A stretch of DNA of 64,000 nt from Eledone cirrhosa. Lineage: Eukaryota. The position numbers were made by a program, and so were the translations under genes. Location: NCBI GenBank assembly GCA_964016885.1, contig OZ024744.1, positions 99,076,001 through 99,140,000 on the forward strand. The letters are read 5' to 3'. Positions within the stretch are counted from its first letter, which is position 1. Every line of letters begins with the position of its first letter. The notes under the pieces are model-generated. The model saw only the letters and a list, made by a program, of their open reading frames with translations. It did no database searches and was not told the DNA's origin. Below are positions 25,841 to 64,000 of the stretch, piece by piece.

Positions 25841-26562
25841 TAAACGGAAAAAATGAAACGAAATTTCATTTCCCACTCTTAGTACGGCTGTTACTTAAAT
25901 ATAAGTATTTATACGTACATACATATATGTATACAGACGTACAGTAGTATGTATATATATATATACATACATGCACACATATATATATGTACGTATGGAT
26001 TCACAGAACATTTATTATAATGCTCGGTGTGTTTGAAAACAAACATCCCCTATTAAGCCGTAGTGTCTAGCAACCATCGTTGCTAGTTTGTTCAACACTT
26101 ACAAAGGAACGCTGTACTAGTTTCAAGCTTATTAGCTATCGTCAGCAACGTATACCTTCCTGCCAGATGATTGAATGTCTGAAAGTATATACTTTCCTTA
26201 TGCATATTAACGGCTGGGCAGCCTAATTTGCATATCGAGTGGGTTAATCGGCCGGGTGCACCGAAAACGATAAACGGAAAAAATGAAACGATTAACCCAC
26301 TCGATATGCAAATTAGGCTGCTCAGCCGTAAATATGCATAAGGAAAGTATATACTTTCAGACGTTCAATCATCTGGCAGGAAGGTATACGTTGCTGACGA
26401 TAGCTAATAAGCTTGAAACTAGTACAGCGTTCCTTTGTCAGTGTTGAACAAACGAGCAACGATGGTTGCTAGACACTACGGCTTAATATAGGATGTTTGT
26501 TTACAAATACACCGAGCATTATAATAAATGTTCTGTGAATCCATACGTACATATATATATGT
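25841..26562. mobile_element. Fold-back PLE-derived insert with ~270-bp arms and a hammerhead in each arm
   Basis: ~25985-26250 is the reverse complement of ~26289-26560; hammerheads at 26109-26151(-) and 26388-26430(+). Confidence 0.88.
26388..26430 (+). ncRNA. Minimal type I hammerhead ribozyme
   Basis: ACGTTG-CTGACGA-TAGCT AATA AGCTT-GAAA-CTAG-TA^CAGCGT; palindromic stem III ACTAGT; GUA triplet. Confidence 0.88.
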
Positions 26563-26567
26563 GTGCA

Positions 26568-29704: not shown

Positions 29705-29748
<44 letters not shown>

Positions 29749-29839: not shown

Positions 29840-29871
<32 letters not shown>

Positions 29872-30925: not shown

Positions 30926-31006
30926 CCCTCTTCCTGGTATTTCAAGCGTTAACCCAATATATCCCTTCCATATACTGTACCGATTGTGTTGTTATTTCTG
31001 TTTACC

Positions 31007-31077
<71 letters not shown>

Positions 31078-32504: not shown

Positions 32505-32544
<40 letters not shown>

Positions 32545-32549
<5 letters not shown>

Positions 32550-32810
32550 CAAAGTTCTTTCGTCACACATTCTGTGTCCTCTTCAGTGACTGGGGATTCT
32601 TTTCTTTGTTTTTTTTGTGCCTCTCCTTTGTTCTGTCCTACGCCATCTTGGCGTAGGACAGAACAAAGGAGAGGCACAAAAGACAAAGAAAAGAATCCCT
32701 AGTCACTGAAGAGTTCACAGAATATGTGACGAAAGAACTTTGACAATATATAAACAACCATCTGGTTGTGGAACCAACCAACCAACCAGAAATTTATAAA
32801 TTCTTAAATA
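32545..32810. mobile_element. Fold-back insert in (TA)n: ~100-bp arms, 3-nt spacer, right-hand tail
   Basis: Centre CTACGCCA-TCT-TGGCGTAG; hammerheads 32548-32590(-) and 32702-32744(+); a one-arm copy lies at 58200-58335. Confidence 0.88.
32702..32744 (+). ncRNA. Minimal type I hammerhead ribozyme
   Basis: GTCA-CTGAAGA-GTTCACA GAATA TGTGAC-GAAAG AA CTT^TGAC; homologues at 58258-58300(+) and 60967-61008(-). Confidence 0.8.
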
Positions 32811-32839
32811 TATATATAATATATATATATATAGTAATA

Positions 32840-35779: not shown

Positions 35780-35822
<43 letters not shown>

Positions 35823-35860
35823 ATATTAATAAATGGAAACTATATTTATAAAACCATAAT

Positions 35861-35922
35861 TATTTTATTATATTTCAAGGGCGACCAAGGTAAATTATGG
35901 TTCACTTTCATCAGATAAAATA
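35861..35922 (-). ncRNA. Type I hammerhead, TATTTTAT-stem family
   Basis: TATTTTAT-CTGATGA-AAG..CTT-GAAATATA^ATAAAATA; homologous to 57753, 57973, 58636 and 59408. Confidence 0.78.
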
Positions 35923-36008
35923 CAGATTTGTTTTATAAATAAATATTGACATACCCGGAAAAAGACAACCTCAACGGTTGAAATTTGCTGTATAGACATA
36001 TACACACA

Positions 36009-37830: not shown

Positions 37831-37967
37831 GTTAAGCGGTTACGATCTGAGTTCAAATCCCGCCGAGGTTGACTTTGCCTTTCATCCTTACGGGGTCGAT
37901 AAAATAAAGTACCAGTAATGCACTGGGTATTGCTGGCCATGTGCCTAAAGTAGAAACAATAATTATT
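37830..37967 (+). mobile_element. tRNA-derived SINE fragment in (ATT)n
   Basis: B-box GAGTTCAAATCC; central TTTCATCCTTACGGGGTCGATAAAATAAAGTACCAG; tail GGCCATGTGCCTAAAGTAGAAACAATAATT. Other fragments at ~19447, 35055 and 51600. Confidence 0.7.
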
Positions 37968-40834
37968 CTAGTTAAGCGGGCGTTGACGGGGGCCATCATC
38001 AACAACAAATGGTGGTTTGCTCTGAAAAGAGCAATTAAAATAGAGTCCATTAGGTTTAGTAAGGCTTTAGCAACAGAGAAAAATAGAGCAGAGGGAGAAC
38101 TAGTTAAAAAATTAGAGGAGGCGCTTAGCAAAGGCAAAGCGACCGACGTACTTGCGGTGAAATTGGCCCTCGACCAATTCTTCAATGCAAAGCACGAAGG
38201 CTGCGTTGTCAGAGCTAGGGTGCGTGCTCTCAGACACGAGGGGACGAAAGCCATTCAATGGGCCCGAGTGGTGGAGGCGCGTCGTGGCAACAAAGCCACG
38301 ATCCGGTCTTTGGTGGACCACGACGGGCGCATGCTACTCGATCCCGGGGAAATTTGTGATGCTTTTCATCGGCACTTCGCTCAGCTGTTCAGGGGCAGCG
38401 GCGGGCCGGGTCGAGGGATGGACTTTAGTGTCTACCTCGACGGACTGCCGCGGCTCTCGGCCACTGAGGCGGAATGTTGCGAAAGGCCGATGACAGCCGC
38501 TGAAGTACGGGAGGCAATGACTGGCTGCACAAGGGGTAAATCGCCTGGTTTGGGTGGTCTGCCCTACGAACTTTACGTACACATGCCAGACTTGTTCGGA
38601 GACCTCTTGGCGGACGTCTACTGCAACTGGCAACAGAACGGGAGAATTCCCAGCTCTGTGAGCCGAGGAGCGGTGGCACTGCTGAGAAAGGATCCGAACA
38701 AGAGGGATAACATAGATAATTTCAGGCCCATAACTCTGCGAAACACAGAGTTCAAGATTTTGGCCAAGGTGCTAGCAAAAAGGTTGGCGCTTGTCGTTGG
38801 TGCTCTGCTGGGAGAGGCGCAGACATGCGCCATTCCCGACAGATCCACCCACGACAACCTCCACCTCATGCGATACATCGTAGAGAGGGTAGCTAGGGAA
38901 CCTGGCACGGGTGGGTCCTTGATCAATTTAGATCAGTCGAAATCTTTCGATAGGGTCAACCATCGTTACCTAGCGGCAGTCCTGAGGGCGGCTGGCTTTG
39001 GGCCCGTCTTCAGAGGCTGGATCGCTGCTATGCACAGCGACATCTGCTCTGTGGTGAGAGTGAACGGTCACTTTTCGGAACCGTTCAACATCATGCGCTC
39101 GGTCCGCCAAAGATGTCCCCTCTCGTCCCTCTTGTACGTATTGACTCTCGAGCCATTACTGCACAAACTGGAGACGTTGAGGGGCGTCCCGCGCGAACTA
39201 GGATGCGGAAGATCCGTGTCAGCATATGCGACGATGTCACCGTAGTGGTGTCGAACGCCAAACACATCGAGGCGATCGGCACTACACTAAGAGAATACGA
39301 AGCGGTGACAGGAGCAGTGATCAACCAGGAAAAGTCAGTGGGCCTGCAGCTCGGCACCTGGAGAGGCAGGTCCATGTCGTTCAACAGCGTCGTCGGGCGC
39401 TGGACGGATGGACCGGTTAAATTGCTAGGGGTCTGGTTCGGTCCGGACCTCCAGACGGACAAAAACTGGGACGAGGTGACGAGCAGGATGGCTTCTCTCA
39501 CCCAGAAATGGGCGGAGAGGAAGCTATCCCTGAAAGGTCGAGCGGAGGTGGCGAATGCGTACATCGCATCCGTCATCTACTACCGCCTGACCGTCGTACC
39601 TTGTCCTAAGCCCCGCCTGATTGCGCTGGAGCGTTTGCTCTTTCGCTTTTTGTGGAAGGGACGCGCTCCGATGGTCAGGCGGTCCATCTGCTGTCAACAC
39701 CCGCTACGTGGAGGGCTGGGCATGCCGTGGCTGATGATGCGTAGACACGCGCTCAGGCTACGACATCTCCACCTCTTCCTCGACGGTGATCAGGTGTGGT
39801 CGCCGTTTGCTAGACGCGTCTTTCCCAAGCTTGTCTCCTTGACGGAGCTGCAGTCCTGGGTCAAGCGAAGACCGAGAGGGAGCGCTTGGAGACTGGAATG
39901 TTTTCAGGCGCTCACAGCCCTCGACCAATCGGGCAATGTGATCGGTGGAAACTCCACCTCGGCGTTCTATAGAGGATTAGTGGAGGGGAAGAGCGACGAC
40001 GTACTTGGGGAAACTCTAGGCGTCGACAAAAATCAACTAGCCAATCTCTTCGGAAGAACTTTCGGGCCGGGGCCTATGGACAACTTCCAGAAATCCCTGG
40101 CCTGGCAGTGCTACCGAGGAGCTTTGCCAGTTCGGGATAAACTCTACAGGCATGGAGGTGCCGTCAGCCGGGCATGTCCGAGATGCGCGCAGAGCGACGA
40201 AACTGTCCTGCACGCACTCGTCCAATGTCCGAGCATTGCTTACTTGTGGGTTTATGTCGAACACCTGCTGTCGCGTGTAGGACGGATCCGGCTATCAGCT
40301 GACTCCATCGTGAGGATTGCCCCGCTCTCTTCCTTTAGCCGGGAAGAGCAGGCAGTTTTTATCTGTCTGGTGGCCATGGCGAAAGAGATATTATGGTGGA
40401 CACGTTTGAAAGGGCTGAAGCCGAGCACTTACCTCTTCGGTGATGCCCTGATTAACTTTTTCAAATTTCATTTGAAAAGGAAAATCAGGGTAGAGAGGGA
40501 AGTGCTCTCTTCCCAGCATTTTGTTGAAAGATGGGTGAGAGAAGCAAGACTGGCCCGAGTGAATGGCCTACTCTGAGTATGTGTCTGTAAATTAAAGGTG
40601 GAAAACTGGGAGAGGGCACTTGCCCTTGTGGTCAGGGTCACTGTGGCCTTTTAATGGGCTTTCTCCACAAATGTCCCTCGGAAGTCTCCTCCCTATTGGG
40701 GAATTTTTCTTTGTTATTTTATTTCATCCTCTGTTTTTTTTTACACGCAGAAATGCCCATTTGTACCGTCCTGTATTGTCCTGTACTGTCCTTAATGTCT
40801 ACTTTATGTAAACCCTTGTGGTTAATAAAGAAAA

Positions 40835-40835
<1 letters not shown>
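37968..40835 (+). mobile_element. 5'-truncated Tx1/L1-clade LINE copy 1 with frameshifted RT
   Basis: KSPG.GG, FRPITL and DQSKSFDRV motifs; 1-bp deletion in YADD (~39228); CPRC..HALVQC knuckle; ends AATAAAGAAAAC(ATT)n. Confidence 0.92.
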
Positions 40836-40890
<55 letters not shown>

Positions 40891-40891
<1 letters not shown>

Positions 40892-41250
40892 AGCTGCATT
40901 TATCTTGCTTTATGTTCATACGAGTTATCACCAAGTCACAACCAGTGACCTCAAGAGACAACAAGGTCCGCCATGTTCAAGAAAGAACATACATACTCAC
41001 ACATGCATCTTTAGGTGTTTAGAATTGTGATGTACTTATATTGACAGAATCTTCCTTAGTATATGGGCAGTTCCCATTAGTACTATCTTTTGTATTTCTC
41101 CTATACGCAGGTTTCCTGGGATTTGCGATAAGTAATCATTAGACCTCTTAGGTATCATTCCTAGAGCGCCTACAACCACTGGTATTGTTTTAGTTCTCAA
41201 TTTCCACATTTTTCCAATTTCTATTTCCAGGTCCTTATACTTGCTCAATT
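40891..41250 (-). mobile_element. 3' fragment of an R4/Dong-like REL non-LTR retrotransposon in (TAA)n
   Basis: KLSKYKDLEIEI..MW..IPVVVGALG..IQKIVLMGTAHILRK; (ATT)n on both sides. Confidence 0.8.
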
Positions 41251-41269
41251 TTATTATTATTATTATTAT

Positions 41270-41959
41270 AGCGACGAAACCGTTGTGCACGCACTCGTTC
41301 AGTGCCCGAGCATTGCTGACTTGTGGAGCTATGTCGAACAGTTGCTGTCACGTGTGGGACTGATCCGGTTGTCGACCGAGTCCATTGTGCAGATGGTCTC
41401 GCCGTCTTCCTTTGAGGAAGAAGGGCAGGCGGTTTTCATCTGCCTGGTGGCCATGGCGAAAGAGATTGTGTGGTGGACAAGGTTAAAAAGATTAAAGACA
41501 AACACTTTCCTCTTCGGCGAATCCCTGATTAACTTTTTCAAGTTTCACTTGAAGAGGAAAATCAGGGTGGAGAGGCAAGTGCTGCCTTCTAGCAAGTTTG
41601 TTGAAAGGTGGGTGAATGTAGCGAGAATGGTCCGAGAGAACGGGACCACTCTGAATATACGTCTGTAGTTTGAGAAATGGTAAAATTGAGAGAGGGCGCT
41701 TGCCCTGGTGGTCAGGGTGGCCGTGGTCTTTTGTGCGGTTTTCGCCACGAGTAACCCTCGGAGGTTTCCCCCCTATTGGGGAATTTTTCATTGTTTCAAT
41801 TTTCATTTTATTGTTTATATATATATATATATGTTTTATGTCTTTTTTCTTTTCTTATATAAACAATAAAAATATTTACACGCACAAAACCCACATCGTA
41901 CCGTCCTGTTCCGTCTGTGATGTTTTTCTTGATGTCAGCCCTTGTGGCCAATAAAGAAA

Positions 41960-41961
<2 letters not shown>
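41270..41961 (+). mobile_element. Short 3' fragment of a Tx1-like LINE (related subfamily), copy 2
   Basis: HALVQCPSIADLW...FHLKRKIRVE; ends AATAAAGAAATC(ATT)n; (ATT)n on the 5' side. Confidence 0.9.
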
Positions 41962-41991
<30 letters not shown>

Positions 41992-41997
41992 GTTATT

Positions 41998-42377
41998 ACT
42001 CTTTGAGTCTCAGTCATTGATGTTAGTTAACTGGAAAGTTTGTTGAAATGAATATCAAGCCACTACCTGCAGCCTCAGATATTCAGGACTTATCGGAGGG
42101 TTCTTGCTGTTCCCAGCAAGCATGCCTTTTGAAGCGTTCCAAAAAGCGTGAAGGGGCCAATTTTCTTTAACCATCCCTGGAAACTTTTTGAGATAGTCCC
42201 TAGTGCGCCTATGACAATCGGGATCACTTTGACTTCATGGCAGTTCCAAATCCTTTTTACCTCCCACTTTAAGTCCTGGTATCGGTTAATTTTCTCCCTC
42301 TCCTTCTCTTGCACTCTCGTGTCGAATGGGCAGGCCACATCCACAATCAGGCACGATCTTTTTTCTTTGTCCACAAC
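41998..42377 (-). mobile_element. 3' fragment of a second R4/Dong-like REL element in (TAA)n
   Basis: CLIVDVACPFD..EKEREKINRYQDL..IPIVIGALG..LQKACLLGTARTLR. Confidence 0.8.
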
Positions 42378-42447
<70 letters not shown>

Positions 42448-45400
42448 GGCGACCTACGTAGGAAATCGTATTATCGTGAGCTCCGCAAAGGTTTGTTATT
42501 TCCGTTTGTTTAAAAATTGCCATTTATGGAAAATTTTATTGTAAACTGTTTATAAGCACACATACATTGTTTTCCGAAAAGGACACCCAAAAAGATTGGG
42601 GCCTTGTGCCCAAAATTTTAACTTTTATTATTATCCAAAAATTTCTTTGAAGAAAAATGGCTAATTCCCCTCTGCACGAAGCAGCTGAAAGCCTTCCTCA
42701 CAAAATAACACCTCACACCGACACCACCATTGTAAATGTTACTACGTTTGCCAACACAAAAAAAATATAAGCAGTAGCAATATTTTAAATTTGTCTCAGG
42801 CAGACATTCATTTCCCGCCATTACCAATGACTGCAGGTGTTAAACCCTCCACCACCACCACCACCGCGACAACAGAAACAAAAGAAGAAAAAAATAAATT
42901 AACTCGTGACGTCGAAATGAAATCAAGCAAAATGGACTCTTCCCCACCAAAGACGACTGACGTCACCACCACCATAACTGAAAATAAAATTAATATTAAC
43001 GATAGCAACAACAACAACAATGACATTATAAAACCGACCCTCAGTTTCGCCATCGTAGCAAAACAATTCGAAGCGTTCACGGTAACTCAAGAAGATTTAG
43101 AAAATGCCAAACAAATGGTAAAGAAAGATGGGTACAGGGTCAGCCCCACCCCCCCCACCTAATAAAATGGAGCATCGGCGCCTGTGCACCGTGTCGTATA
43201 GAACAATAAATGTAAAATCGCGCCGAGTGGAACGGGCATCCGAGTCCCAAATCCAAAAAGCTTTGGGACATGTGTGGGCAAGAAAAACCCACATCAGACG
43301 TGGGCAAAAGTATGGAACCGTGGATGTGTTCTTTGAAACACCAGAGGAGGCTAGAGAACACTCCATGGCCCCATTAAAAAGTGACGACCTCACACTCGTC
43401 CCAAGCTATTGTGGCCAGAGACTCGTAAAGATCAGGGTGACCCACGTTCCACCGGCCATCGAAATTCCCTGGCTAATAGTGGCTGTCATCGCCGGCATCG
43501 AGGCCAACACGAAAATAATAACAATAGCAAAAGAAAAGCAGGAAAACTGGTCCGGATCTGGGATGGAGCTCCTGATCCAAGCGGACCAAAAAAGCATTGA
43601 GGAGATCCCAGAGGTAATAGACCTCACTGACGGCAGCCACCTCACGGTAATTGTCGAGGGCAGAAGACCTAGGTGTGTCGTTTGTGGTGAAGGAACCCAC
43701 CTAAGGGCTTTCTGCCCTCAGGCTAAAAGGTTGAGGCCACCTCTCCTACCCACCCCAGTGACACAACCATCAACACCACCAGTAGCAGAGATGGCAGCAA
43801 CAACTGTAGCAGCAACAACAGAAGCAACTATAACAGCAACAACCCCAGCAACAGTAGCAAAACCAACACCACTACCACCACCAGCAAAACCAACACCACC
43901 ACCACCCAACGCTTCAGAACTAGCACCAGCGCCTACACCATCCACCACACCACAACCAAAACTAACGGCTGTGGAGGATTTTCCACTCCCCGGCCTATCA
44001 CAACTGGAGACAGATTGTGACGACGAGGAGTGGGAAACGATATCCGGAAAAAAAAAAAGAAACCAAAAAAGAAAAAAATTCTCTTCCTTCCCCCTCCAAA
44101 AACAAAATACAGAGGGAAACAAATAAACTAAGAAACAAAAAAGTTAGGACAGATATGCCACCATCCACACCAGCATCACCAACCCCATCAACCCAAACAC
44201 CAACACCATCACCATCATTAACTCCAACACCACCATCACCTACACCACAAAAGTCACCAAAATGCAAAACAGAAACAAACCCACAACAAACGCAAACAAA
44301 ACAAAACAACCAAAACGATACACACTACACAGCATTAAATTTGAACAACAAGCAATTATTACACTACATCCAACACAACACCAGCATCACAGAAAAAGAC
44401 TACACAACAACCCCAAAATTCACACCACCTCCACACATACAAATCACTCGCATCACACAGAAAACGTACATGACACTAAAACAAAAATTCCCCAAAGACA
44501 TCGGAGACTTCCGACAAGCACTCTCCAGGAGGATTTATAAGGACATCCTTCCTGAGGAGGCCACAAGCAGTGAAAAGGATGGAAAAGCCGTCCTTCCCCT
44601 ACGAGAAGTAAGGTAAGTGGTCTTTCCCATCTTTTCCACTCCTTTTCAACATGACCTCACTCAGAATAGGCAGCATAAATGCGCGTGGCTTGGGGTCGTC
44701 ATGGAAGCAGGGCCACCTGCTCAACGACCTCAGGTCACTAAACATAGATGTAGTGGCCATCAGCGAGACCAGAATCTCCGAAGCACAGGCTTTCGCACCG
44801 ATCTTCGGCGGCTACGATGTGTACGCATCTCCCAGCCGTCCGGGATCGGGGGGAGGAGTTGCTGTGCTTTTTCGGAGAGGTTTGGATCTTGCCATACGGG
44901 CCATCTTCCTGGACCCAGAAGGTAAGTTGGTGGTGCTGGACGTGACCAGCGGAGACGGGCAAGCTTTCAGGTTAGTGGCCGTCTATGCCCCGACAGGAGC
45001 AGGGCGGCCTGATTTCTTCCGGCGTCTGGAGACCTTTCTTGGAACGTCCCGCTCTTTAGTGTTAGTGGGCGACTGGAACGGGATCTTAGATGCACGCTGG
45101 GATTGTGTGGGATGAGTGGATAGGGAAGGAGGGTGCAAGAGTCTCACCAACCTGCTCAGACGTTTTGAACTGTCTGACAGGTACCGAATGGATTTCTCGA
45201 ATGTACCAATGTGGACTTGGACAAATCGCATAGGGTCATCCAGATCATATCTAGATAGAGTATTTTGTAGGGAAATAGATAGGTCTAGCATAGGCTGTCC
45301 ACAATTCAAGATAGTCAGCTACACGGACCACAAATTCGTGATCTGTGTGCTTGACTTAGATAGGCTTCATAGACGAGGACCCGGCTACTGGAAGCTAAAC

Positions 45401-47884
45401 GCGTCCTTACCAGCGCGCAAGGCCTACAGAGACCGGATTAGCGAACTAGTTAAGCGGGCGTTGACTGGGGCCATCGTCAACAACAAGTGGTGGTTTGCTC
45501 TGAAAAGAGCAATTAGAATAGAGTCCATTAGGTTTAGTAAGACTTTAGCAATAGAGAAAAATAGAGCAGAGGGAGAATTAGTAAGAAAATTAGATGAGGC
45601 GCTTAGCAAAGGCATCGCGACCGACGTACTTGCGGCGAAATTGGCCCTTGACCAATTCTTCAATGCAAAGCACGAAGGCTGCGTTGTCAGAGCTAGGGTG
45701 CGTGCTCTCAGACACGAGGGGACGAAAGCCGTTCAATGGGCCCGAGTGGCGGAGGCGCGTCGTGGCAACAAAGCCACGATCCGGTCTTTGGTGGACCACG
45801 ACGGGCGCATGCTACTCGATCCCGGGCAAATGTGTGAAGCTTTTCAGCGACACTTCGCTCAACTGTTCGGGGGCAGTGGCGGGCCGGATCGAGGGATGGA
45901 CTTTAGTGTCTACCTCGACGGACTGCCGCGGCTTTCGGCCACTGAGGCGGAGTGTTGCGAAAAGCCGATAACAACCGCTGAAGTACGGGATGCAATGACT
46001 AGTTGCACAAGGGGTAAATCGCCTGGTTTGGATGGTCTGCCCTATGAACTTTACGTACAAATGCCAAACTTGTTCGGAGGCCTCTTGGCGGACGTCTACT
46101 GCAACTGGCAACAGAACGGGAGAATTCCCAGCTCTGTGAGCCGAGGAGCGGTGGCGCTGCTCAGAAAGGATCCGAACAAGGGGGATAACATAGATAATTT
46201 TAGGCCCATAACTCTGCTAAACACAGAGTTCAAGATTTTGGCCAAGGTGCTAGCAAAGAGGTTGGCGCTTGTCGTTGGTGGTCTGGTGGGAGAGGCACAG
46301 ACATGCGCCATTCCCGACAGATCCATCCACGACAACCTCCACCTCATGCGATACATCGTAGAGAGGGTAGCTAGGGAACCTGGCACGGGTGGGTCTTTGA
46401 TCAATTTAGATCAGTCGAAAGCCTTCGATAGGGTCGACCATCGTTACCTAACGGCAGTCCTGAGGGCGGCTGGCTTTGGGCCCGTCTTCAGAGGCTGGAT
46501 CGCTGCCATGCACAGCGACATCTGCTCTGTAGTGAGAGTGAACGGTCACCTTTCGGAACCGTTCAACATCATGCGCTCGGTCCGCCAAGGATGTCCCCTC
46601 TCGTCCCTATTGTACGTATTGACTCTCGAGCCATTACTGCACAAACTGGAGACGTTGAGGGGGGTCCCGCGCGAACTAGGATGCGGAAGATCCGTGTCAG
46701 CATATGCCGACGATGTCACCGTAGTGGTGTCGAACGCCAAACACATCGAGGCGATCGGCACTACACTAAGAGAATACGAAGCGGTGACAGGAGCAATGAT
46801 CAACCAGGAAAAGTCAGTGGGCCTGCAGCTCGGCACCTGGAGAGGCAGGTCCATGCCGTCCAACAGCGTCGTGGGGCGCTGGACGGACGGACCGGTTAAA
46901 TTGCTAGGGGTCTGGTTCGGTCCAGACCTCCAGACGGACAAAAACTGGGACGAGGTGACGAGCAGGGTGGCTTCTCATACCCAGAAATGGGCCGAGAGGA
47001 AGCTATCCCTGAAAGGTCGAGCGGAGGTGGCGAATGCGTACATCGCATCCGTCATCTACTACCGCCTGACCGTCGTACCTTGTCCTAAGCCCCGCCTGAC
47101 TGCGCTGGAGCGTTTGCTCTTTCGCTTCTTGTGGAAGGGACGCGCTCCGATGGTCAGGCGGTCCATCTGCTGTCAACACCCGCTACGTGGAGGGCTGGGC
47201 ATGCCGTGGCTGATGATGCGCAGACACGCGCTCAGGCTACGACATCTCCACCTCTTCCTCGACGGTGATCAGGTGTGGTCGCCGTTTGCAAGACACGTTT
47301 TTCCCCAGCTCGTCTCCTTGACGGAGCTGCAGTCCTGGGTCAAGCGAAGACCGAGAGGGAGCGCTTGGAGACTGGAATGTCTTCAGGCGCTCACAGCCCT
47401 CGACCAATCGGGCAATGTGATCGGTGGAAACTCCACCTTGGCGTTCTATAGGGGATTAGTGGAGGGGAAGAGCGACGACGTACTTGGAGAAACTCTAGGC
47501 GTCGACGAAAATCAACTAGCCAATCTCTTCGGAAGGACTTTCGGGCCGGGGCCTATGGACAACTTCCAGAAATCCCTGGCCTGGCAGTGCTACCGAGGAG
47601 CTTTGCCAGTTCGGGATAAACTCTACAGGCATGGAGGTGCCGTCAGCCGGGCATGTCCGAGATGCGCACAGGGCGACAAAACCGTCCTGCACGCACTCGT
47701 CCAGTGTCCGAGCATTGCTGACTTGTGGGTTTATGTCGAACACCTGCTGTCACGTGTAGGACGGATCCGGCTATCAGCTGAGTCCATCGTGAGGATTGCC
47801 CCGCCCCCTTCCTTTAGCCTGGAAGGGCAGGCAGTTTTTATCTGTCTGGTGGCCATGGCGAAAGAGATAGTATGGTGGACACGT
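42448..47884 (+). mobile_element. Near full-length Tx1/L1-clade LINE copy 3 (5' UTR, ORF1, ORF2), 3' end replaced by a PLE
   Basis: Starts right after (ATT)n; homology to copy 1 stops at TGGACACGT| (~47884). Confidence 0.9.
42827..44616 (+). pseudogene. Tx1-like ORF1 (CCHC knuckle, Pro/Thr-rich), two frameshifts
   Basis: SFAIVAK; RPRCVVCGEGTHLRAFCP; frame changes near poly-C (~43150) and poly-A (~44050) runs. Confidence 0.7.
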
Positions 47885-47923
47885 CGGAAAAGTCCAGGAA
47901 AAAAGAGTGCTCTATGTAGGTAA
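44651..47923 (+). pseudogene. Tx1-like ORF2: APE endonuclease + RT (YADD) + knuckle; one in-frame TGA at 45113-45115
   Basis: SINARGL, ISET, VYAP, GDWN, SYLDR, TDHK, GYWKLN, QGCPLS, YADD. Confidence 0.9.
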
Positions 47924-47966
47924 CAGAGCTTAATAGTTATGTAATAAACAACATAAGGCAATTATT

Positions 47967-48022
47967 CCATTTACCAGTGGTTTCTTAAAAGCAAAAGATT
48001 TTGCTTTCAATCCTCAGAATGA
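47967..48022 (-). ncRNA. Type I hammerhead ribozyme
   Basis: TCATT-CTGAGGA-TTGAAAGCAAAA TC TTTTGCTTTTAA-GAAACC ACT GGTA^AATGG; identical motif at 57229-57284(+). Confidence 0.87.
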
Positions 48023-48168
48023 AAAAATCCTGGTCTGTTTATTGAATTTGGATTTTAAAAACAAAAATGCAATCTATATGAAAGTGAGGCTGGAGAAGGA
48101 AGAAGGAAAGGAAAAATAAAATAAAACTACACATGCAAACACACACACAAAAACACAAAAGCATATAT

Positions 48169-48253
<85 letters not shown>

Positions 48254-48382
48254 TGTAGGAGGTGAGTTTTATTGTAGTACAATAAAGCAATGCAGATATC
48301 GGATAAGAAGCACTCTACAGTTTGTAGGACTGGAGTATACATAATATATAAGAACAAAAGATGGTTAAAAGCGTTCCATGTA

Positions 48383-48449
48383 TTTTATTATGCGCATTTC
48401 AAAAACAAATATCATCATACAATAATATTTGTGTTTTCATCAGATAAAA
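48383..48449 (-). ncRNA. Type I hammerhead ribozyme with palindromic stem III ATGCGCAT
   Basis: TTTTAT-CTGATGA-AAACACAAATATTATT..GATGATATTTGTTTTT-GAAATGCGCATA^ATAAAA; copies at 56789-56855 and 56912-56978. Confidence 0.85.
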
Positions 48450-50126
48450 CAGGAAGACATGATATGAAGGTTAAAAAAACACTTGTGGATAGTTCAGTTT
48501 TAAATCAACATATGAAAAGTAGTTTTAGATTGATGTGTGATATTGGGAAAAATATTTTATTTTGAGGGGGGGTTGGAAAGGATGAAAAAGAGGAGGAGAT
48601 GAGAGTAAAAAGTGGAGAGGGAGGAGTATAATGAGGAAGGATGAGATAGGAGGAGAGATGGGTGATAGAGAGAGAGAGAGAGATAGCTTTTATAACTGAG
48701 AAAAATATATTGTTTTACATAGAGAGGTTGAAAACCGTTGGAAGATAATGTATAAATTAAAAGAATTTGAAAATTAACGAAGAGAAAAATAATGTAAAGT
48801 TAAGGTTTGTATATTGAAGAGTTTAATAATATGTTCGATGGAGAGAAAAAGTTAATATGTATTAAGAATAATATTTAAGGGTTTAATAATATGTGCGATG
48901 GAAAGAAAATGTTGATATGTATTATTAAAGTAAGGATATATTGTGAGATGAGCATGAATAAGTTAGATGAAAGGGAGAAAAAATAATGAATTGAGGATGA
49001 ATAATCTAACGTCAAAAGAATGTTTATGTTTACGAAGGATTTTTACAAGGTGATATAGAGTAAGAATGTATTTTATTATGTAATAATTGTTTCTATGTTA
49101 GGCAACAGTGAGAAAAGGTACAGATTAGGGGTTAGACATTAAAAGAAAAAGAGAAGAAAGGGAAGTGATAAATATGAGTGATATAGAATGAGTAACAAGT
49201 ATTATATAATGTATAATAAATAACTTTGAAATAAGGTAGAAAGATGGGTATATTTTTAAAGAAGTATATATATATATATATATATGTGCCTTTGAGAAAA
49301 AGATTCTAAATTGATAAAGTTTTGGATATTAGCTGTATACTTTGTGGAATGTTTTGTGGAATTTATGCAAGCAGATAGAAAACAAGTCAGTGCATCTATT
49401 TATTATAGAATCTAAATTAGATATAATGGTAAATTTTTCATTTAGACAGAGATTGCAAATCTTGGATAGAGAACTGTTCAAGTATAAAGACGCAGAAGAA
49501 ACCTTCTTCCAAAAGATGCTATATTTAATATTTTTGTCTTTCAAGGACCATATGAGTTCTGAGAGAGCCGTGTTGGTTCTTTTAAGTTTGTATTTAAAAG
49601 ACGAATGATGGTTATAAAGACGAGCTTTAAAGGGGGTGGAAGTGGAGCCAAAATAGGTGAAGGAATTCCTTCACTATTGAAGGAATTCCTTCACTATTTC
49701 TGCTACGGTTTTTTTTTTGCTGATTCTACGTTCTGTACTCTTGTATTTTTTCTCCTTTACCTCCCCTATATTTCACCTTTTCCTATGTCCCCCCCCCCCC
49801 CACATATTCTTTTTGCCTTGCCCTTCACATACCTATGTGTATGTGTGTGTATATTTGTGTGTATATATATATATATATGTGTATATATATGTATATATAT
49901 ATATATTAGTGTGTGTATATGTATATGTAGATAGACCAGGTTTTTTTCATTCTGAAGATTGAAGGAAAATTGTTTTGCTTTTAAGAAACCACTGGTGAAT
50001 GGAATAATTGCCTTATGTTGCTTATTACTTTATTACTTTACTACTATATATATGTATATGTAAGGTTCATATGAATTATCTAAGACTGAGTTTTACACAC
50101 ACACACATGTATATGTGTATTTTGTG

Positions 50127-51971: not shown

Positions 51972-52270
51972 GCGGGGACATAGAAATAATCGGGCTGGAT
52001 GCCCGATCGCGCAGTTAAACCACTGGGAGTGAAGAACCCCTAGCCCATGTCAGGGTATTCTTCTAGGAGAAGGCATCTCAGGAAACTGGGTTAACTCCGA
52101 TATAAAACCTGCGGCTCAGTAGTTACCGATGATGTTGATCTTTTCTTCTTTTCGGGTTATAGCTACTGTCGCTCAGAGAGTGGGATTGGTTCAGTGCACA
52201 GTCTTTCCTCACTTTAAAAATATTCGTCACGCACAGGCATTGCACGAGTGCATTAATAATTATTAATAGT

Positions 52271-52310
<40 letters not shown>

Positions 52311-52315
52311 TATTA

Positions 52316-52346
<31 letters not shown>

Positions 52347-55300
52347 CCCAATTCAATGATGTTCCAGAACAATGTAAACGAGATAATTGCCAATTTGGGT
52401 TCTGGAACAAAAGAGATCATTGGCAATAAGGGCAGGGGCCCCAAGTTATCACAACCTGGGCCCGCCCGTCATCGTGCCATTGTAATAGAGCCAAACAGGG
52501 CATTTAGTCTTGGCTGCTGGAACGTACGGACGCTGCTTGACAGGGATTCTTTGGAGCGTCCTGAACGAAGGACCGCTCTTGTTGCGAAGGAGCTTCGACG
52601 TTACGATCTTGACATCGTGGCTTTGTCTGAGACGAGGTTAGCTGGAGATGGTCATCTTACGGAATTTTGTGGAGAATATACATTCTTCTGGAAAGGAAGA
52701 GATGAAGGAACCAGAAGAGAGGCTGGGGTAGGATTTGCTGTTAAGACTGTACTGGTGAATAAATTAGAAGAATTCCCAGTGGGGATTAGTGAGCGTCTTA
52801 TGTCCATGAGAGTTCCGCTGGACAAGGGAAGATATGCTACCCTGGTGAGTGTGTATGCTCCAACTATGAATTCTGTCGATGAAGAAAAACTGTCCTTTTA
52901 CCATGCCTTGAAAGGTGTTTTAAGAAATATCCCTCAGGCAGACAAAGTCATCGTGCTTGGTGACTTTAATGCTAGAGTGGGTAGGGATTTTAACACATGG
53001 AATGTAATCGGAAGGCATGGGGTGGGAAAGTGTAACAGCAATGGTATGCTCTTGCTGCAGATGTGTGAGGAGCTGGATCTGTGTGTTACCAACACCATGT
53101 TCCAACGAGAGAACAAATTCAAGACCACATGGATGCATCCTGCATCTAAGGAATGGCATCTTTTGGACTACGTCCTAGTCAGGATGCGTGACAGACAGGA
53201 TGTGCGGTGTGTTCGTGTTCTTCGTGGAGCTGAGTGCTGGACGGACCACCGCCTGGTACGCGCAAAAGTGAATCTAATCACCAAACGTAAAATCCGGGCT
53301 CCTGGTGTTACCCTGCCCAAAAGATTGAATGCTGCTCGTCTTAAGGATAAAAATGTGAAGAGGACATTGGAAGAAGAGATGCAGGCTGCAGATCTTGGTG
53401 AGGATTGGCCGACCCTTAAAAAGTCGGTTTATGATGTAGGCAGACGTGTTCTGGGATTAGTGCAGAGAAAACATCAGGACTGGTTTAATGAGAAAGATGT
53501 GCATATAGATGACTTGTTGGCTGATAAGAGGCGCGCTCTGTCACGCTACTTGACGGCAAGACCACAGGAGAGGAATACGTTGCATGAGGAGCTCAGGGAT
53601 GTAAAATCACGTGTTAGGCGGAGTCTTTCTCAGATGAAGGATCAGTGGTGGAGTGAGAAGGCTGGTGAGATACAAACTGCGTCTGATTGCAATAACACAA
53701 AGCTGTTGTACAGTCTCTTGCGTGAGGTTTATGGACCGTCTTCTTCTCTGGTGACACCGATTCGCAGCAGGGATGGCAAAGAACTTCTTCGTGACTCACA
53801 GGGAATTCTACGAAGGTGGCGAGAGCACTTTGATGATCTTTTGAATCAGCCGTCTGTCGTCAGTGAAGATTTCCTCAATCTCATTCCGGAAAGTCCTGTG
53901 AAAGTAGCTCTCGCAGAGCCTCCGACACTTGTGGAGGTTGCAGTGGCTATTTCGAAGCTGAACAGTGGAAGATCTCCAGGTATGGATGGCATACATGCTG
54001 AGCTCCTACAATATGGTGGTGAGAGACTCCTGCAACATCTTCACTCTCTGTTTGGAAGGATATGGGCTAATGAATCCGTGCCTGAGGACTGGAGAGATGC
54101 AGTAATGGTGGTCTTGTACAAGGGAAAGGGTAACAGGAATGATTGTGGGAACTACAGAGGTATATCATTGCTTTCTGTCGTGGGGAAAGTTTTATGTAGG
54201 GTGCTTCTGGACTGTCTGCTGACACACATTGCAGATTGTGTCCTTCCTGAAAGTCAATCTGGTTTTCGTGTTGGACGCGGCACTACTGATATGATCTTCT
54301 CAGCTAGACAGCTCCAGGAGAAGTGCATTGAACAGGGCTTGGATCTGTATCAGGTTTTTGTCGATCTGACAAAGGCTTTCGATACTGTCAACAGAGATGC
54401 ATTATGGAAGGTTCTCCAGAAACTTGGTTGCCCTGATAAGTTCCTTGCTTTAGTTAGGTCTTTCCATGACGACATGAAGGCTTGGGTTAATGTCGGAGGT
54501 AACATGTCGGAGCCTATCTCAGTAAAAAATGGAGTGAAACAGGGGGATATTCCAGCACCGACCCTGTTTGCCATATACTTTGCAATGGTTTTCTGTGTTG
54601 CATTCAGGAATTGCGAGCATGGTGTTTACATCCGATATCGAACCTCAGGCAGCATATTTAACATCAGGCGCTTTGCTGCGAAGACAAAAGTATTTACATC
54701 AGTCATAAGAGACCTCTTGTATGCAGATGATTGCGATCTTGTAGCGCACACAGAGAGTGATATGCAGCACATTTTGAATGTATTTTCTGACGCTTGCACT
54801 GCCCTGGGTTTGACTGTCAGTCTCAAGAAAACCGTCGTCATGTACCAACCTGCACCTGGTAGGCAGTACACTGAACCAAACATCTATGTGTATGGCGAAC
54901 GACTTGGAGTGGTTGATCAGTTTGTCTACCTGGGAAGCACTGTCAATCGATACGGCAACCTTGACAGTGAAATCTCACTTAGGATTAGGAAAGCAAGTGA
55001 TGCTTTCGGAAAGCTAGAAAGGCGACTCTGGGGTCGGCGAGACATATGCAGGAGGACAAAGGTAAGGGTGTACAGGGCATGTGTACTCTCTTGTCTTCTT
55101 TATGCCTGCGAGACCTGGGTCACATATCGACGCCACCTTAAGCAATTGGAGCGTTTCCATCAGATGTGTCTCAGACGGATACATGGCGTTCACTGGAGGG
55201 ACCACATCAGTGATGTCGAGATTTTGGAAAGCTCTATGTGTGACAGTATAGAAGCTCTTGTGCTTAAGCAGCGACTCCGTTGGAGTGGTCACCTTGCCAG

Positions 55301-55909
55301 GATGAAGGATTCTAGAATACCAAAACAACTCTTCTATGGAGAGTTGGTTAAAGGAAAACGACCGCCACATAAACCAAAAAAGAGGTATAAGGATTCCTTG
55401 AAGGCCTCTCTGAGAGACGCTAACATCTCTGCTGATACATGGGAAAATGTTGCTGCTGATCGTAATAAATGGAGAAAGACTGTATATGAGGGAAAAGTTG
55501 CCTTTGAGGCATCTCGAATCGCACACGAGAAAGTAAAGCGGGACGTGAGGAAGGGTATTGCTGTTGCACTTCCAGACGGCGAGGGTCCTCCTATGTTTCT
55601 GACATGCGGCGTCTGTGCGAGACTCTGCCTAAGCAAAGCTGGACTCGAAAGTCATCTTCGCAGTCATAAAGTAAGACCAGTGGTTGACTACCAGGCTGCT
55701 GTTGGAGATGCTACTCATCATGCTTGCCAAACATGTGGTAGAGAATGTAAATCAGCAGGAGGACTCAAGCGACATGCAAAAGTACACGAACTCCAACCAC
55801 AGCCGACTATTCCCAGTAAATGTTTTGGTTGCCGACTCTGTGCAAGACATTTTGGATCATTGGCTGGGCTAAAAAGCCACATTCGATCGCAGCACTGTTA
55901 GTTGCTATC

Positions 55910-56385: not shown

Positions 56386-56659
56386 TATGTATGTATATGT
56401 GTGTATGTATATGTATTTATATTTATGTTTCTATGTGTATGTATGTGTGTATATATGTGTGTGTGGTTGTATATATGTATGTGTATGTATGGATGTGTTG
56501 ACATTTATGTGCGTATGTATATATGTGTTTGTGTGTATTTATATACACATATGTGTGTATATATGTGTGCGTGTGTGTATGTATGAGTGTATGTATGAGT
56601 GTATGTATGTGTATATATATATATATGTATGTATATGTATATATATATATATGTATGTA

Positions 56660-57423
<764 letters not shown>

Positions 57424-57549: not shown

Positions 57550-58201
<652 letters not shown>

Positions 58202-58436: not shown

Positions 58437-58531
<95 letters not shown>

Positions 58532-58589
58532 TTGCGAGGTTTTTGTATTCTGGCAATATTATTACACAAAAAAAAAATATATATATATA

Positions 58590-59607
58590 TATACAATATA
58601 TTAACAAATGGAAACTATATTTATAAAACCATATTTATTTCATTATACATATTTCAAGGACCACCAAGGCAGATTATAGTGCGCTTTCGTCAGATAAAAT
58701 ATAATATAGATTAGTTTTATAAATAAATATTGACATACCCTGAAAAATGCAACCCTCACGGTTGGAGTCTCCTGGGTAGTGGTGTTATTAGATTTATTGT
58801 TGGTTTATTATGCAAATTAGTGTCGGAAAGGTTTAAATAACAGTATATTTAAATTACACCGTTGGAAGAGGGAAAAAAGAAAGAGAAAAAGAAAAAAAGA
58901 AAGAGAAAAAGATATATAAATATATATAAAGGTTCTTAACATACACATTTAAACTTCTGATTGAATTGATAAATTATTAATTTATTAAACCCTAGATAAA
59001 ATTCTTCAACCTATCATTATAACGAACCCGGCTATTATTCATCTACGATATATTCATTTATTCATTTCTTCGCTTCTTCTCCCATAACGTAAACAATAAT
59101 TACGTTATTACTGTCCCTATAACTAATATTCTCTCTCACTTAAATATACTCACGTTGTTTCTCTTTCTCTTTCTCTTTCTTTTTCTATTTCTTTTTCTCT
59201 TTCTTTTTTCTTTTTTCTTTTTTCTCTTTCTTTTTTCCCTCTTCCAACGGCGTAATTTAAATATACTGTTATTTAAACCTTTCCGACACTAATTTGCATA
59301 ATAAACCAACAATAAATCTAATAACACCACTACCCAGGAGACTCCAACCGTGAAGGTTGAATTTTTCAGGGTATGTCAATATTTATTTATAAAACTAATC
59401 TATATTATATTTTATCTGATGAAAGCGCACCATAATCTGCCTTGGTGGTCCTTGAAATATGTATAATGAAATAAATATGGTTTTATAAATATAGTTTCCA
59501 TTTGTTAATATATTGTATATTTACTCCAATTAATTTGTTGAGTGCTTTATATCAGTTATAAAAATATTTTGCTGGTTGTATCCCAACAAATTAAGTATAA
59601 CCTCTAC
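58590..59607. mobile_element. Fold-back insert: ~320-bp arms, ~290-bp spacer, right-hand tail, paired hammerheads
   Basis: 58592-58910 mirrors ~59200-59520; hammerheads 58636-58701(-) and 59408-59473(+). Confidence 0.88.
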
Positions 59608-59956: not shown

Positions 59957-59957
<1 letters not shown>

Positions 59958-60147
59958 CGAAGGAAATGTGGTAAGGAACCAGGTGGACCATAACGCACCA
60001 AAGTACTCAATACTTAGGGTAGTAGAGTGGGTAATAGGAACGAGTAAGACCCCGACGGCTGAGCTCAAGCCGTTTCGACGGTTAATTCTGGACTCCAGAA
60101 TTAGCCGTCGAAACGGCTTGAGCTCAGCCGTCGGGGTCCTACTCGTT

Positions 60148-60152
<5 letters not shown>
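59957..60152. mobile_element. Fold-back insert: ~59-bp arms, 1-nt spacer, left-hand tail; carries the 3' half of a hammerhead
   Basis: AATTCTGGA-C-TCCAGAATT centre; GAAACGGCTTGAGCTCAGCCGTC^GGGG. Confidence 0.85.
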
Positions 60153-60196
<44 letters not shown>

Positions 60197-60198
<2 letters not shown>

Positions 60199-60532
60199 AA
60201 ACAAAATGAAAACGAAATTTCATTTCTCACTCTTAGTATGGCAGATGGGTAAACGGTGCTGATGATAGCTAACAAGCTTGAAACTAGTACATCGTTCCCG
60301 TGTCAGTGTTGAACAAAAAGGTGACGTGGTTGCCTTAACACCGTATGGCATAAATTCAGGCTGTTCAGTTTGTTTACAAACGAACAAAGCGACGTTAGCG
60401 CCGCTAAACTGATACGTGCATATATGTATGTGTACCTGAATGCATATGTATGTATATATGTATATATATATATATATGTGCATGCTACTGTACGTCTGTA
60501 TACATATATGTATGTACGTATACATGCATACT

Positions 60533-60540
<8 letters not shown>
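60197..60540. mobile_element. Inverted (twin-primed) short copy of the 25841-26562 family
   Basis: Antisense tail 60197-60246 matches 25842-25890, followed by a sense arm with a hammerhead at 60252-60296. Confidence 0.8.
60252..60296 (+). ncRNA. Minimal type I hammerhead ribozyme
   Basis: AACGGTG-CTGATGA-TAGCT AACA AGCTT-GAAACTAGTA^CATCGTT. Confidence 0.88.
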
Positions 60541-60579
<39 letters not shown>

Positions 60580-60622
60580 ATATACATATAAATATATATA
60601 TATATATATATAAATATACATG

Positions 60623-60725
<103 letters not shown>

Positions 60726-60829
60726 GTATATAGTTTTGCGAGGTTTTTGATATGAATTATACTTGATATGAATTATACTTGGGGAGGGTCATATTTGTGT
60801 AATATTGCCAGAATTAATAACAGAACACA

Positions 60830-62858
60830 CTCACTGTTTGGTTGGTTTTCGCTTCTGTGTCTTTTATATCGGTTAATTTAATTTATTCCGTCCTCAATGT
60901 TGCCATTGACTGACCAACGGTCAAAAATACAGATACAATATAGACACAAACACATATATATAGTCTATCAAAGTTCTTTCGTTGCACATCTGCAACATCG
61001 TCAGTGGTGCTATTGTTTCCTCCCGTTGCATTGTATTTTCTACGCCATCTTTATTTAGTCTGTTTATATATTTATTTATTTGTTTTGTTTTTTTGTCTTC
61101 TTTGCGCATGCGTTTGCGTGTGTCTATAGGGTTTTGTTTGATGTGTGTTCGTGATTGGGTGACTGTGTATTGGTTAATGTATTCTATCTTTACTAGAGTG
61201 TGTTTATATGTGTTTGTTGTTATTGTGCTTGTGTATGTATTTATTTATCTATTTATTTATTTATTTATTTATACTTCTCTTAGGTCAGTGTTGTTTGTTT
61301 GGGTGTTGTTGTTATTCCATTCATTTTTTCTGTTTAGCATTGGCCTTCTAAGTTCTATTTCACTGGCCTCTCTGATTTGCCTATCTGCTGGGTGATTTCT
61401 ATGTTTAGATATTATTCTAATTTCTATGTTGTCTATGTTACCGTCGTGTTGTTGTCTGGCATGTTTGTATAGTACTGAACCGTTTTTTCGTCCTTTTAGT
61501 TCCCCCCAGTGTTGGTCTATCCTTTCACCTATGCTACGAGTTGTCTCGCCTATGTATGTTGTTGTCGTGTTTCTGCAAGTACCCTCTGTACATCTTATAC
61601 TATAGACTACGTTTCTAGTTTTACAGTTTATCCGGGGTTTACTTTACATATGATACATTTCCTATTAGTACAGTGGGTTTTCTTAAAAGAGTTGGTTTTG
61701 CCGATCAGGGATTTTATGGTGGTTCCTGGATTTTCTACCACCTTAATCTTTAAGTGGGTCTTTCTCAGGTCCTTTCTACACTGGTTAGCTAATTTCCCTC
61801 CAGGAGTAGCGTCCACAAACATGACACTCTGGTATCTCTGGTTGTCGTACCATGAAGTGGCTTTCCCTATCTTATGTCTAGCCCTATCTAAGCTATTCCA
61901 TGATTTGCTCCTGTATAATGGGAAAATTCCTTTCATGTCCAGTTCTATGAGGGTCTTATACTTCTCCGTGGCTCCTTCGTATACTCTGATTCTCACTCTT
62001 TGTTTGTAGCCAGAGAACTGCATGCGGTTGATGAAGTGTTGGATGTGTCTTTCCATTTCTGCTGGGTCGCACATGCGGGACACATTCTTCATCACTCGTA
62101 CCAAGTCTGCGATCTGAATATTAAACTTAGCGCTACTGGACATTGCTGAGTTTTTGAGTATCAGGTATTTGGAGGCCATGGGTTTAGCATAGTGTGAGTG
62201 GAGAATTTGGGCTCTCTCGTCTATAGTGTTAATCCAGAGTTCCGTGTCTAATACAGGTAGTCTATTGTTAGGGTGTTTGGAAGGGTAGTCGATAGTAATA
62301 GTTATACTCTGGTGTATGGAATGATCTATCTGCTGGCTGCTTTCCATTGTGCTACGTTCTAAATCAAACTTGTTAGTGCTCTCTAGTGGGGATGTTCTTA
62401 TTACTATATTGATATCGTCTACGTAACGAGAGTACATGATGAGGTCTATGGAGCTCTCATCAAGGAGATCTTTAAGTCTCTTTTCCCACCATACCATAAA
62501 AAGGTTGGCAACGTCACCAGCTATGCTGACGCCAATGGCTGCTCCCTCATTTTGGGTGTAGATCTTCTCGTTGAACTTGAATATGTGGCCCTTTAGGGTA
62601 GTTTTGATACTAGCCCCTATTGCATGTGCGACAATTTTTCTTACCTGATCATTGTTTTGGGGGGTCCGTATAGCTTTGGTCCACCCAATCCACCTTCCCA
62701 TGGGAGTCTTTTTAGCCATTGAGGTTATGGTGGGGGGTCTACCTCTTATGGGTCTACTGGGGCAGAAACGTCTAAGGTCATGGCTGTCTAGGTAGTCAGT
62801 GTCGTAGGTAAGTCTAAGTAGGAGGCCCAGTTCGTCTGTGTTGACGTCGCAGAACAGG
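60830..62858 (-). mobile_element. 5'-truncated Penelope-like element (Naiad-like): RT + GIY-YIG + 3' hammerhead
   Basis: QNEGAAIG, YSRYVDD, LPVLD, KPMAS; EN frame 61269-61631 NVVYSIRC..C..YIGET..RQIREA..LNRKNEW; hammerhead 60967-61008(-). Confidence 0.85.
61628..62858 (-). pseudogene. PLE reverse transcriptase, 5'-truncated, stop before the endonuclease
   Basis: ORF 61628..62899; its first residues read across the inversion junction. Confidence 0.85.
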
Positions 62859-64000
62859 CGGATTGGGTGGACCAAAGCTATACGGACCCCCCAAAACAAT
62901 GATCAGGTAAGAAAAATTGTCGCACATGCAATAGGGGCTAGTATCAAAACTACCCTAAAGGGCCACATATTCAAGTTCAACGAGAAGATCTACACCCAAA
63001 ATGAGGGAGCAGCTATTGGCGTCAGCATAGCTGGTGACGTTGCCAACCTTTTTATGGTATGGTGGGAAAAGAGACTTAAAGATCTCCTTGATGAGAGCTC
63101 CATAGACCTCATCATGTACTCTCGTTTCGTAGACGATATCAATATAGTAATAAGAACATCCCCACAAGAGAGCACTAACAAGTTTGATTTAGAACGTAGC
63201 ACAATGGAAAGCATCCAGCAGATAGATAATTCCATACACCAGAGTATAACTACTACTATCGACTACCCTTCCAAACACCCTAACAATAGACTACCTGTAT
63301 TAGACACGGAACTCTGGATTAACACTATAGACGAGAGAGCCCAAATTCTCCACTCACACTATGCTAAACCCATGGCCTCCAAATACCTGATACTCAAAAA
63401 CTCAGCAATGTCCAGTAGTGCTAAGTTTAATATTCTAATCGCAGACTTGGTACGAGTGATGAAGAATGTGTCCCGCATGTGCGACTCAACAGAAATGGAT
63501 AGACACATCCAACACTTCATCAACCGCATGCAGTTCTCTGGCTACAAACAAAGAGTGAGAATCAGAGTATACGAAGGAGCCACGGAGAAGTATAAGACCC
63601 TCATAGAACTGGACATGAAAGGAATTTTCCTATTATATAGGAGCAAATCATGGAATAGCTTAGATAGGGCTAGACATAAGATAGGGAAAGCCACTTCATG
63701 GTACGACAACCAGAGATACCAGAGTGTCATGTTTGTGGACGCTACTCCTGGAGGGAAATTAGCTAACCAGTGTAGAAAGGACCTGAGAAAGACCCACTTA
63801 AAGATTAAGGTGGTAGAAAATCCAGGAACCACCATAAAATCCCTGATCAGCAAAACCAACTCTTTTAAGAAAACCCACTGTACTAATAGGAAATGTATCA
63901 TATGTAAAGTAAACCCCGGATAAACTGTAAAACTAGAAACGTAGTCTATAGTATAAGATGTACAGAGGGTACTTGCAGAAACACGACAACAACATACATA
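62859..64000 (+). pseudogene. Inverted second arm of the same PLE (RT and start of EN), running off the window
   Basis: Reverse complement of ~61550-62690 with few substitutions (e.g. YVDD vs FVDD). Confidence 0.88.

Follow-up and report, generated by a model that had tools for sequence, protein, structure and literature searches.

The 64 000-nucleotide stretch of Eledone cirrhosa DNA analysed here, which we refer to as the window, is a TA-rich animal repeat landscape with many short palindromes lying in (TA)n. Satellites occupy positions 1-19005 and 26566-30537, LINE-type ORFs are found at 37908-47923 and 52260-55901, and a coding palindrome runs off the right end of the window (Table 1). 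The GIY-YIG domain of the latter was found with a Pfam E-value of 1.9e-4, just under the curated cut-off, and its best named relative among 29 hits was an Octopus vulgaris protein, 64% identical; by its predicted domains it is an EN+ Penelope-like element (PLE). The subject of this study is the repeat immediately to its left, at 60197-60537 (copy A), which we compared with a longer copy of the same family at 25841-26567 (copy B) and with a small structure at 58526-58575 (copy C). The ORF list gave no RT + GIY-YIG ORF within copy A, such an ORF being present in the separate element at 60733-64000.

The surrounding repeats showed features of their own. The satellite at 1-19005 is built on 46 bp, contains three near-identical 1445-bp blocks (~7964-11716) with a diverged part beyond, and has a long open frame for which no Pfam match was obtained. 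A CAC/ACT-rich satellite with extreme strand skew (26566-30030) abuts the right arm of copy B and may have cut it. Two LINE copies that are 96% alike (37968-40411 and 45446-47890) encode RT and zf-RVT, the second having an endonuclease frame upstream of it together with a weak match to MBD (43122-44126), and an open frame of 1213 aa at 52260-55901, with AP endonuclease, RT and C-terminal C2H2 fingers, is apparently an intact LINE ORF.

Table 1. Positions in the window of copies A, B and C, their parts and their neighbours (., no strand assigned).
Feature	Position	Strand	Basis and remarks
Tailed antisense arm of copy B, used as reference, 451 nt	25841..26291	-	Alignments, shuffles
Sense arm of copy B	26289..26567	+	270/279 bases paired to those of the left arm; 3 nt of microhomology where the arms meet; CAC-rich satellite directly to the right
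Palindrome of another hammerhead family	32540..32810	.	Tail-less arm extends 5 nt beyond the tailed one at the centre, as a 2-bp stem with a 3-nt loop
Copy C, second non-overlapping inversion, of another PLE family	58526..58575	.	Outer end of the 60733 element (17-20 nt) and inverted 21-nt piece (60814->60794), between TA runs
(TA)n left flank of copy A, target microsatellite	60150..60196	.	Sequence
Antisense 'tail' piece of copy A (= 25842-25889); putative first cDNA, primed from the left DNA end	60197..60243	-	Alignments, shuffles, X1, X6 and X2 contigs
5-nt microhomology TGGCA, common to both pieces	60239..60243	.	X6 contig enters at 60239, others exit at 60243
Sense arm of copy A (= 26165->25899); putative second cDNA (primer, right DNA end; start, internal TA-rich site)	60239..60537	+	Alignments, contigs, shuffles
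Type I hammerhead motif	60254..60294	+	Stem I 60254-58/60290-94, core from 60259
TA-rich right flank of copy A	60538..60732	.	Sequence
Coding PLE, head-to-head palindrome, RT and C-terminal GIY-YIG, broken between	60733..64000	.	Hammerhead 61004 (-); runs off the window

Copy A consists of two non-overlapping, oppositely oriented pieces of one family, placed back to back. On alignment in both orientations, the left piece (60203-60242) matched 25850-25888 of copy B on the same strand, with 92.5% identity over 40 columns, and the right part (60239-60530) matched 26165->25902 in inverted orientation, with 72% identity over 293 columns, including 86% over 79 nt in the hammerhead zone and 94% over 53 nt at the TA-rich end; in 5000 shuffles each, no score as high was obtained for either alignment. 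The limits were refined by means of the contig loose ends described below, which place the end of the left piece at 60243 (= 25889) and that of the right arm at 60537 (= 25899), so that nine template bases are absent between the two pieces, and the five bases TGGCA at the inversion joint are compatible with both. The first-pass annotation, made from the letters alone, had described the left ~50 bp as an antisense tail and nothing else, matching 25842-25890, and the right part as a sense arm reaching from the hammerhead to about 25895-25950; both descriptions held to within a few bases. It had also stated that the sense arm has no mirror on the left and could not have been copied from the surviving left cDNA. 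We found no mirror of the right arm in 60150-60243, where the best local score, 20, came from a 16-nt AT-rich match, and the right arm cannot have arisen by fold-back of the left piece. With (TA)n on either side, no target-site duplication can be distinguished, including a discrete one of 12-18 bp. The microhomology of the outer end of copy A to TA is 2 nt, a value reached by 45% of random positions.

Copy A could beforehand have been taken for the plain element and copy B for the rearranged one, because the centre of copy B repeats its start. We therefore turned to three public contig sets aligned to 60197-60535, namely X1 (2912 contigs), which may be the window's own source, and the small sets X6 (18 contigs) and X2 (16 contigs), which may be stray DNA, and their loose ends were compared by eye with the window. 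The loose ends behind 60242-60243 continue in the order of copy B in 3/3 sets. In the subfamily of copy A, nine bases past 60243, they are the reverse complement of the right end of copy A, and one X6 contig enters copy A at 60239 out of copy B-like upstream sequence. Because the contig loose ends follow the order of copy B in all three sets, the reading of copy A as the plain element was rejected: judged by these contigs, the usual order of the family is that of copy B, and copy A is the rearranged one. Copy A showed one difference from the X1 majority at 10 listed places, in a sampling biased towards like sequences, and looks young, whereas palindromes with arms 3-5% apart stay intact.

Parts of the copy A stretch were also present in 20 of the 24 sequencing runs listed, with no RNA run among these 20; the runs with the stretch carry 15 coded organism labels and a wastewater label, and may come from relatives or contain stray DNA of a repeat with a very high copy number. 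Pattern scans of metagenome, genome and viral contigs for the stretch gave no match.

A type I hammerhead motif lies in the right arm of copy A. Its stem II begins with a U.U mismatch at the base, and its stem III is of 2 bp with a palindromic loop, the same stem II and stem III architecture being described for animal hammerheads in the available portions of PMC7229834 and PMC4209133. One stem I pair is altered on both sides, from G.U to U.G, compared with the copy at 26394 in copy B, and the cut is predicted after 60289. An Rfam scan gave no hammerhead among 90 matches, all of them below gathering scores and mostly miRNA models on palindromes or TA runs, and the fold energy was no better than that of shuffles. 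The hammerhead is real as a sequence motif; its self-cleavage is a prediction. In the coding palindrome, the hammerhead at 61004 (-) has the same sense as the ORF, and the sense of the hammerhead therefore marks the sense of the RNA, with 3' ends pointing outward.

Copy A is likely to be a non-coding, hammerhead-bearing derivative of a PLE, to judge from the traits it combines: a type I hammerhead, a head-to-head tailed relative in its family (copy B) and (TA)n on both sides. No link of the family to a coding PLE was found within the window beyond a 17-nt match to the coding element (E 0.033, opposite sense). In this match (25841-25857 against 61320-61336), the 430-nt family at its tail end and the PLE endonuclease frame at its terminus agree in 16/17 bases; the match lies in the opposite sense to the hammerhead and is probably due to chance.

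The unit of the family is 430 nt, and the 451-nt left arm of copy B comprises one such unit and 21 nt of the next, with the same run-on seen as a loose end in X2. Because both the arm of copy B and X2 run past one unit, the template was likely tandem or circular, as for non-LTR retrozymes, which makes the 'tail end' a site within the template. Two hammerhead units in tandem were not seen in the window. The arms of copies A and B cross the predicted cut site, so that the template would have been uncut, or re-joined, at that point.

Taken together with the short gap and the microhomology at the joint, this geometry makes it rather probable, in our judgement, that copy A represents two cDNAs from one RNA, one primed at each end of a cut (TA)n target. 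Both strands of the target would be cut by an RT/GIY-YIG protein of a PLE, supplied in trans. One DNA end would then prime at the outer tail site, giving a cDNA that stops 9 nt short of the inner TA-rich site, and the other would prime at that inner site and copy ~300 nt through the uncut hammerhead; the two cDNA 3' ends would be joined, likely via the 5-nt microhomology. A single RNA is proposed as the template for both cDNAs, as in L1 twin priming, because the breakpoints nearly abut, and we infer it from this alone.

The first-pass annotation had claimed that the geometry fits L1 twin priming, a model due to Ostertag and Kazazian 2001 (via PMC11702581), and we agree. The available part of PMC11702581 gives deletions of 1-10 bp in 22 of 32 cases of L1 5' inversion, with microhomology at the junctions, and copy A is in line with these values in its geometry, its gap of 9 nt and the 5 nt of microhomology at its joint. 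The two have in common a pair of opposed, near-abutting pieces of one template, a short gap and microhomology at the joint. In contrast to L1 inversions, copy A has no poly(A), readable target-site duplication or L1 protein. The position of its second start is not free but recurs at the tail base, and its 3' piece, only 47 nt long, is a tail of PLE type located inside a 430-nt unit. Copy A works like an L1 twin-priming inversion, yet is not one.

Both ends might instead have been primed on two separate RNAs by a PLE protein dimer, with the cDNAs joined end to end, which would not be twin priming. For the PLE protein PAc, Poseidon of Anolis, a dimer is predicted, and extension of both strands is described (PMC11167929, in part); L1 insertions from two RNAs are recorded in the available part of PMC11702581. 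We nevertheless think this improbable: if the templates were independent, a stop of the first cDNA only 9 nt from the start of the second would have no explanation, and the arms within a palindrome (112/113 and 189/192) are usually nearer to each other than to other copies (~90% and 80%), which gene conversion could also bring about.

Non-overlapping inversion is not confined to copy A. Copy C, from the 3' end of another PLE family (that of the 60733 element), combines two short pieces for which 0 and 1 of 5000 shuffles scored as high, its inverted piece lying ~41 nt further in than its outer-end piece; a control with real sequence gave 11 hits of 1313, namely eight simple repeats, two related hammerhead copies and copy C itself. 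In X1, all six joints listed start at 60236-60243, followed by at most 11 bases of the family, and each reaches one of six points in the sense arm (60275, 60300, 60301, 60314, 60405 and 60407), and no strand-change joint was among them. The sides of these joints are only 21-28 letters long, so that breaks more than ~12 nt past 60243 are invisible as skips, and the comparison left out 60437-60535 as repeat; hairpin junctions were also likely under-sampled. Given this detection limit, we rejected the X1 joints as proof of breakpoint clustering, and they show recurrence only. Many such copies seem to be present in this genome.

These recurrences bear on two further explanations. The joint of copy A might be an assembly error: among the contigs listed for X1, X6 and X2, none bridges it, and PLE inverted structures are described as troubling assemblies in the available text of PMC8557442. 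The presence of the same joint type in six X1 contigs and in copy C makes an error of this kind barely credible. Alternatively, a plain antisense, 5'-truncated copy might have been inverted later by a two-step replication template switch, which would yield an identical geometry with microhomology at both joints. This appears very improbable to us, because 64 kb of sequence contain two cases, each broken at or within a PLE tail, which together with the six X1 joints point to a step tied to insertion, and there is no TA run at the inner joint. The absence of TA from the inner joint also led us to reject inversion through self-complementary TA runs.

A different order of events, in which a palindrome like copy B first arose by fold-back and then, at the time of insertion or later, its left arm was removed by a deletion between two TGGCA words, would suit the 5-nt microhomology equally well. 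Palindromes are common in the window (12 candidates), many Penelope copies are disabled by microhomology-mediated deletions according to the available part of PMC3846280, and loss of the whole mirror would be a stable end state. Against this, the break must lie outside the mirror in both copy A (by 9 nt) and copy C (by ~41 nt), and copy A looks young while older palindromes persist; we therefore hold loss of an arm to be unlikely.

The arm ends of other families bear on the priming of two cDNAs at two sites. In three other families in the window, the tail-less arms end at the same base (3/3, 3/3 and 2/2 ends aligned). The overlap of the arm end with the TA flank in six families, as read by eye, was 4, 5, 3, 7, 2 and 3 nt, a slight excess over random positions (P 0.027) in which the value for copy C, following an A run, is doubtful. 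Copy B has a satellite directly against its right end, and for this reason that end was not counted among the priming sites. Next to the single-arm copies (23528, 35819 and 57518) we saw no tail piece. The expectation that breakpoints cluster at the TA site is thus met with in other families of the window, but it does not distinguish priming at both ends from self-priming, since both models predict it.

The palindromes require a separate account. The 12 candidates in the window, not all of which are shown to be PLE-derived, have spacers of 0, 1, 1, 3, 5, 6, 6, 8, 38, 38, 160 and 261 nt; the spacer is 8 nt or less in 8/12, and the arms are 95-99% alike. Because two independently truncated cDNAs would rarely give such symmetry, either fold-back or the running of both cDNAs off the same RNA end is needed, and most likely the palindromic copies involve a further step, the fold-back of one cDNA onto itself. 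The claim that one process yields both copy A and the palindromes consequently stands only with this additional step; as originally put, it would rarely give the short spacers and closely similar arms. In 4/5 palindromes in which the spacer could be assigned by sequence, it belongs to the tailed arm (copy B, 25022-25291, 59957-60152 and the coding palindrome), the assignment resting for 59957-60152 on 2 nt only and for the coding palindrome, whose right end is off the window, on ORF continuity. For these four, fold-back alone is a sufficient explanation. Copy B could alternatively be non-overlapping on a dimeric RNA, its left arm stopping 21 nt into the next tail.

The palindrome at 32540-32810 differs from these four in that its tail-less arm runs further than the tailed arm, and three of the five extra nucleotides at its centre are locus-specific (~1 in 64 by chance). 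The tail therefore needs a separate cDNA, and the sequence suggests fold-back of the tail-less arm, with the tail coming from elsewhere. We propose, tentatively and with more doubt than confidence, that PLE insertion is routinely two-ended, both cut ends priming one RNA at a fixed pair of sites, one at each boundary of the tail. Inversions (60197, 58526) would result where the cDNAs are joined directly, and a tailed palindrome (32540) where either of them folds back. If this is true, the tail, the palindrome and the inversion belong to one scheme, which would replace self-priming on an antisense template.

Known traits of PLEs include inverted 5'-truncated arms, one-sided tails and a bias towards microsatellites, and their origin is called unresolved in the available part of PMC8557442. 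EN+ PLEs with an inverted pLTR and a one-sided tail (PMC3846280, PMC8557442; both in part) resemble copy B and the other palindromes of the window in their head-to-head arms, tail, hammerhead and (TA)n targets. Copy A is unlike them, as its tailed arm is the tail alone and there is hence no inverted repeat. Inverted PLE joints were read as self-priming in the part of PMC3846280 consulted, and this process cannot build copy A unaided.

Biochemical work on purified PAc provides another parallel. In vitro, both strands are cut and extended by PAc, for which uncut RNA offers two internal start sites, one on each side of the tail (PMC11167929, in part). Extension of both strands, two RT starts bounding the tail, AT-rich targets and an uncut hammerhead RNA as template correspond to what we propose for copy A. 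In contrast, the joining of two cDNAs and non-overlapping inversion are not described in the available part of that paper, which states that priming needs no homology.

Metazoan non-LTR retrozymes, for which mobilisation by PLEs is proposed, are likewise non-coding units a few hundred bases long that contain one type I hammerhead (PMC7229834; bioRxiv 10.64898/2026.07.22.740005; both in part), and the 2026 preprint derives them from PLE pLTRs. Copy B is similar in that it extends beyond a single unit, which an RNA of tandem or circular form would permit. Unlike non-LTR retrozymes, the window copies are inverted, tailed insertions, and no two-hammerhead tandem was seen among them.

One-sided tails, inverted arms and two-strand extension in vitro were already known, and what appears to be new is a non-overlapping PLE inversion in which the tailed arm consists of the tail only. 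Two-ended priming of PLEs is not treated in the available parts of PMC13282606 and PMC12910113. A search of titles and the beginnings of abstracts, outside which most subscription papers lay, found no paper that applies twin priming to PLEs. Such copies may be shown in Arkhipova 2006 and Evgen'ev and Arkhipova 2005. Tailed arms made of tail alone are a genomic footprint that separates self-priming from two-ended models, and counts of such junctions make the open question of PLE insertion a countable one. Copy A itself is an ordinary piece of repeat, and no host function is implied.

Several other arrangements were seen among the hammerhead repeats of the window. The structure at 56658-57315 is maybe like that at 32540-32810, but its parts could be separate insertions. 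It shares with 47936-48473 two hammerhead segments and the intervening TA run, which recur together, and in the 56658 copy 123 nt are duplicated in tandem, 44 nt are mirrored exactly and an inverted part of 234 nt is 99% alike; the two are possibly one composite unit, produced by two-ended priming and fold-back. An inverted pair at 30691-31009 and 32188-32506, 96% alike and ~1.2 kb apart, has some of its TA-rich flank mirrored, and its hammerhead-like cores point inwards, opposite to those of the other palindromes. One hammerhead family (58586-59605, 57704-58165 and 35819-35980) has tails of ~80-100 nt, compared with the 30-40 nt usually quoted, and its palindrome at 57704 has a centre without a spacer. 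In a family with a degenerate hammerhead (34534-34800, 19972-20233, 25622-25774 and 32834-33018), the copy at 34534 shows sense, 23-nt antisense and sense segments in series, and that at 19972 a body followed by an inverted piece from the tail side.
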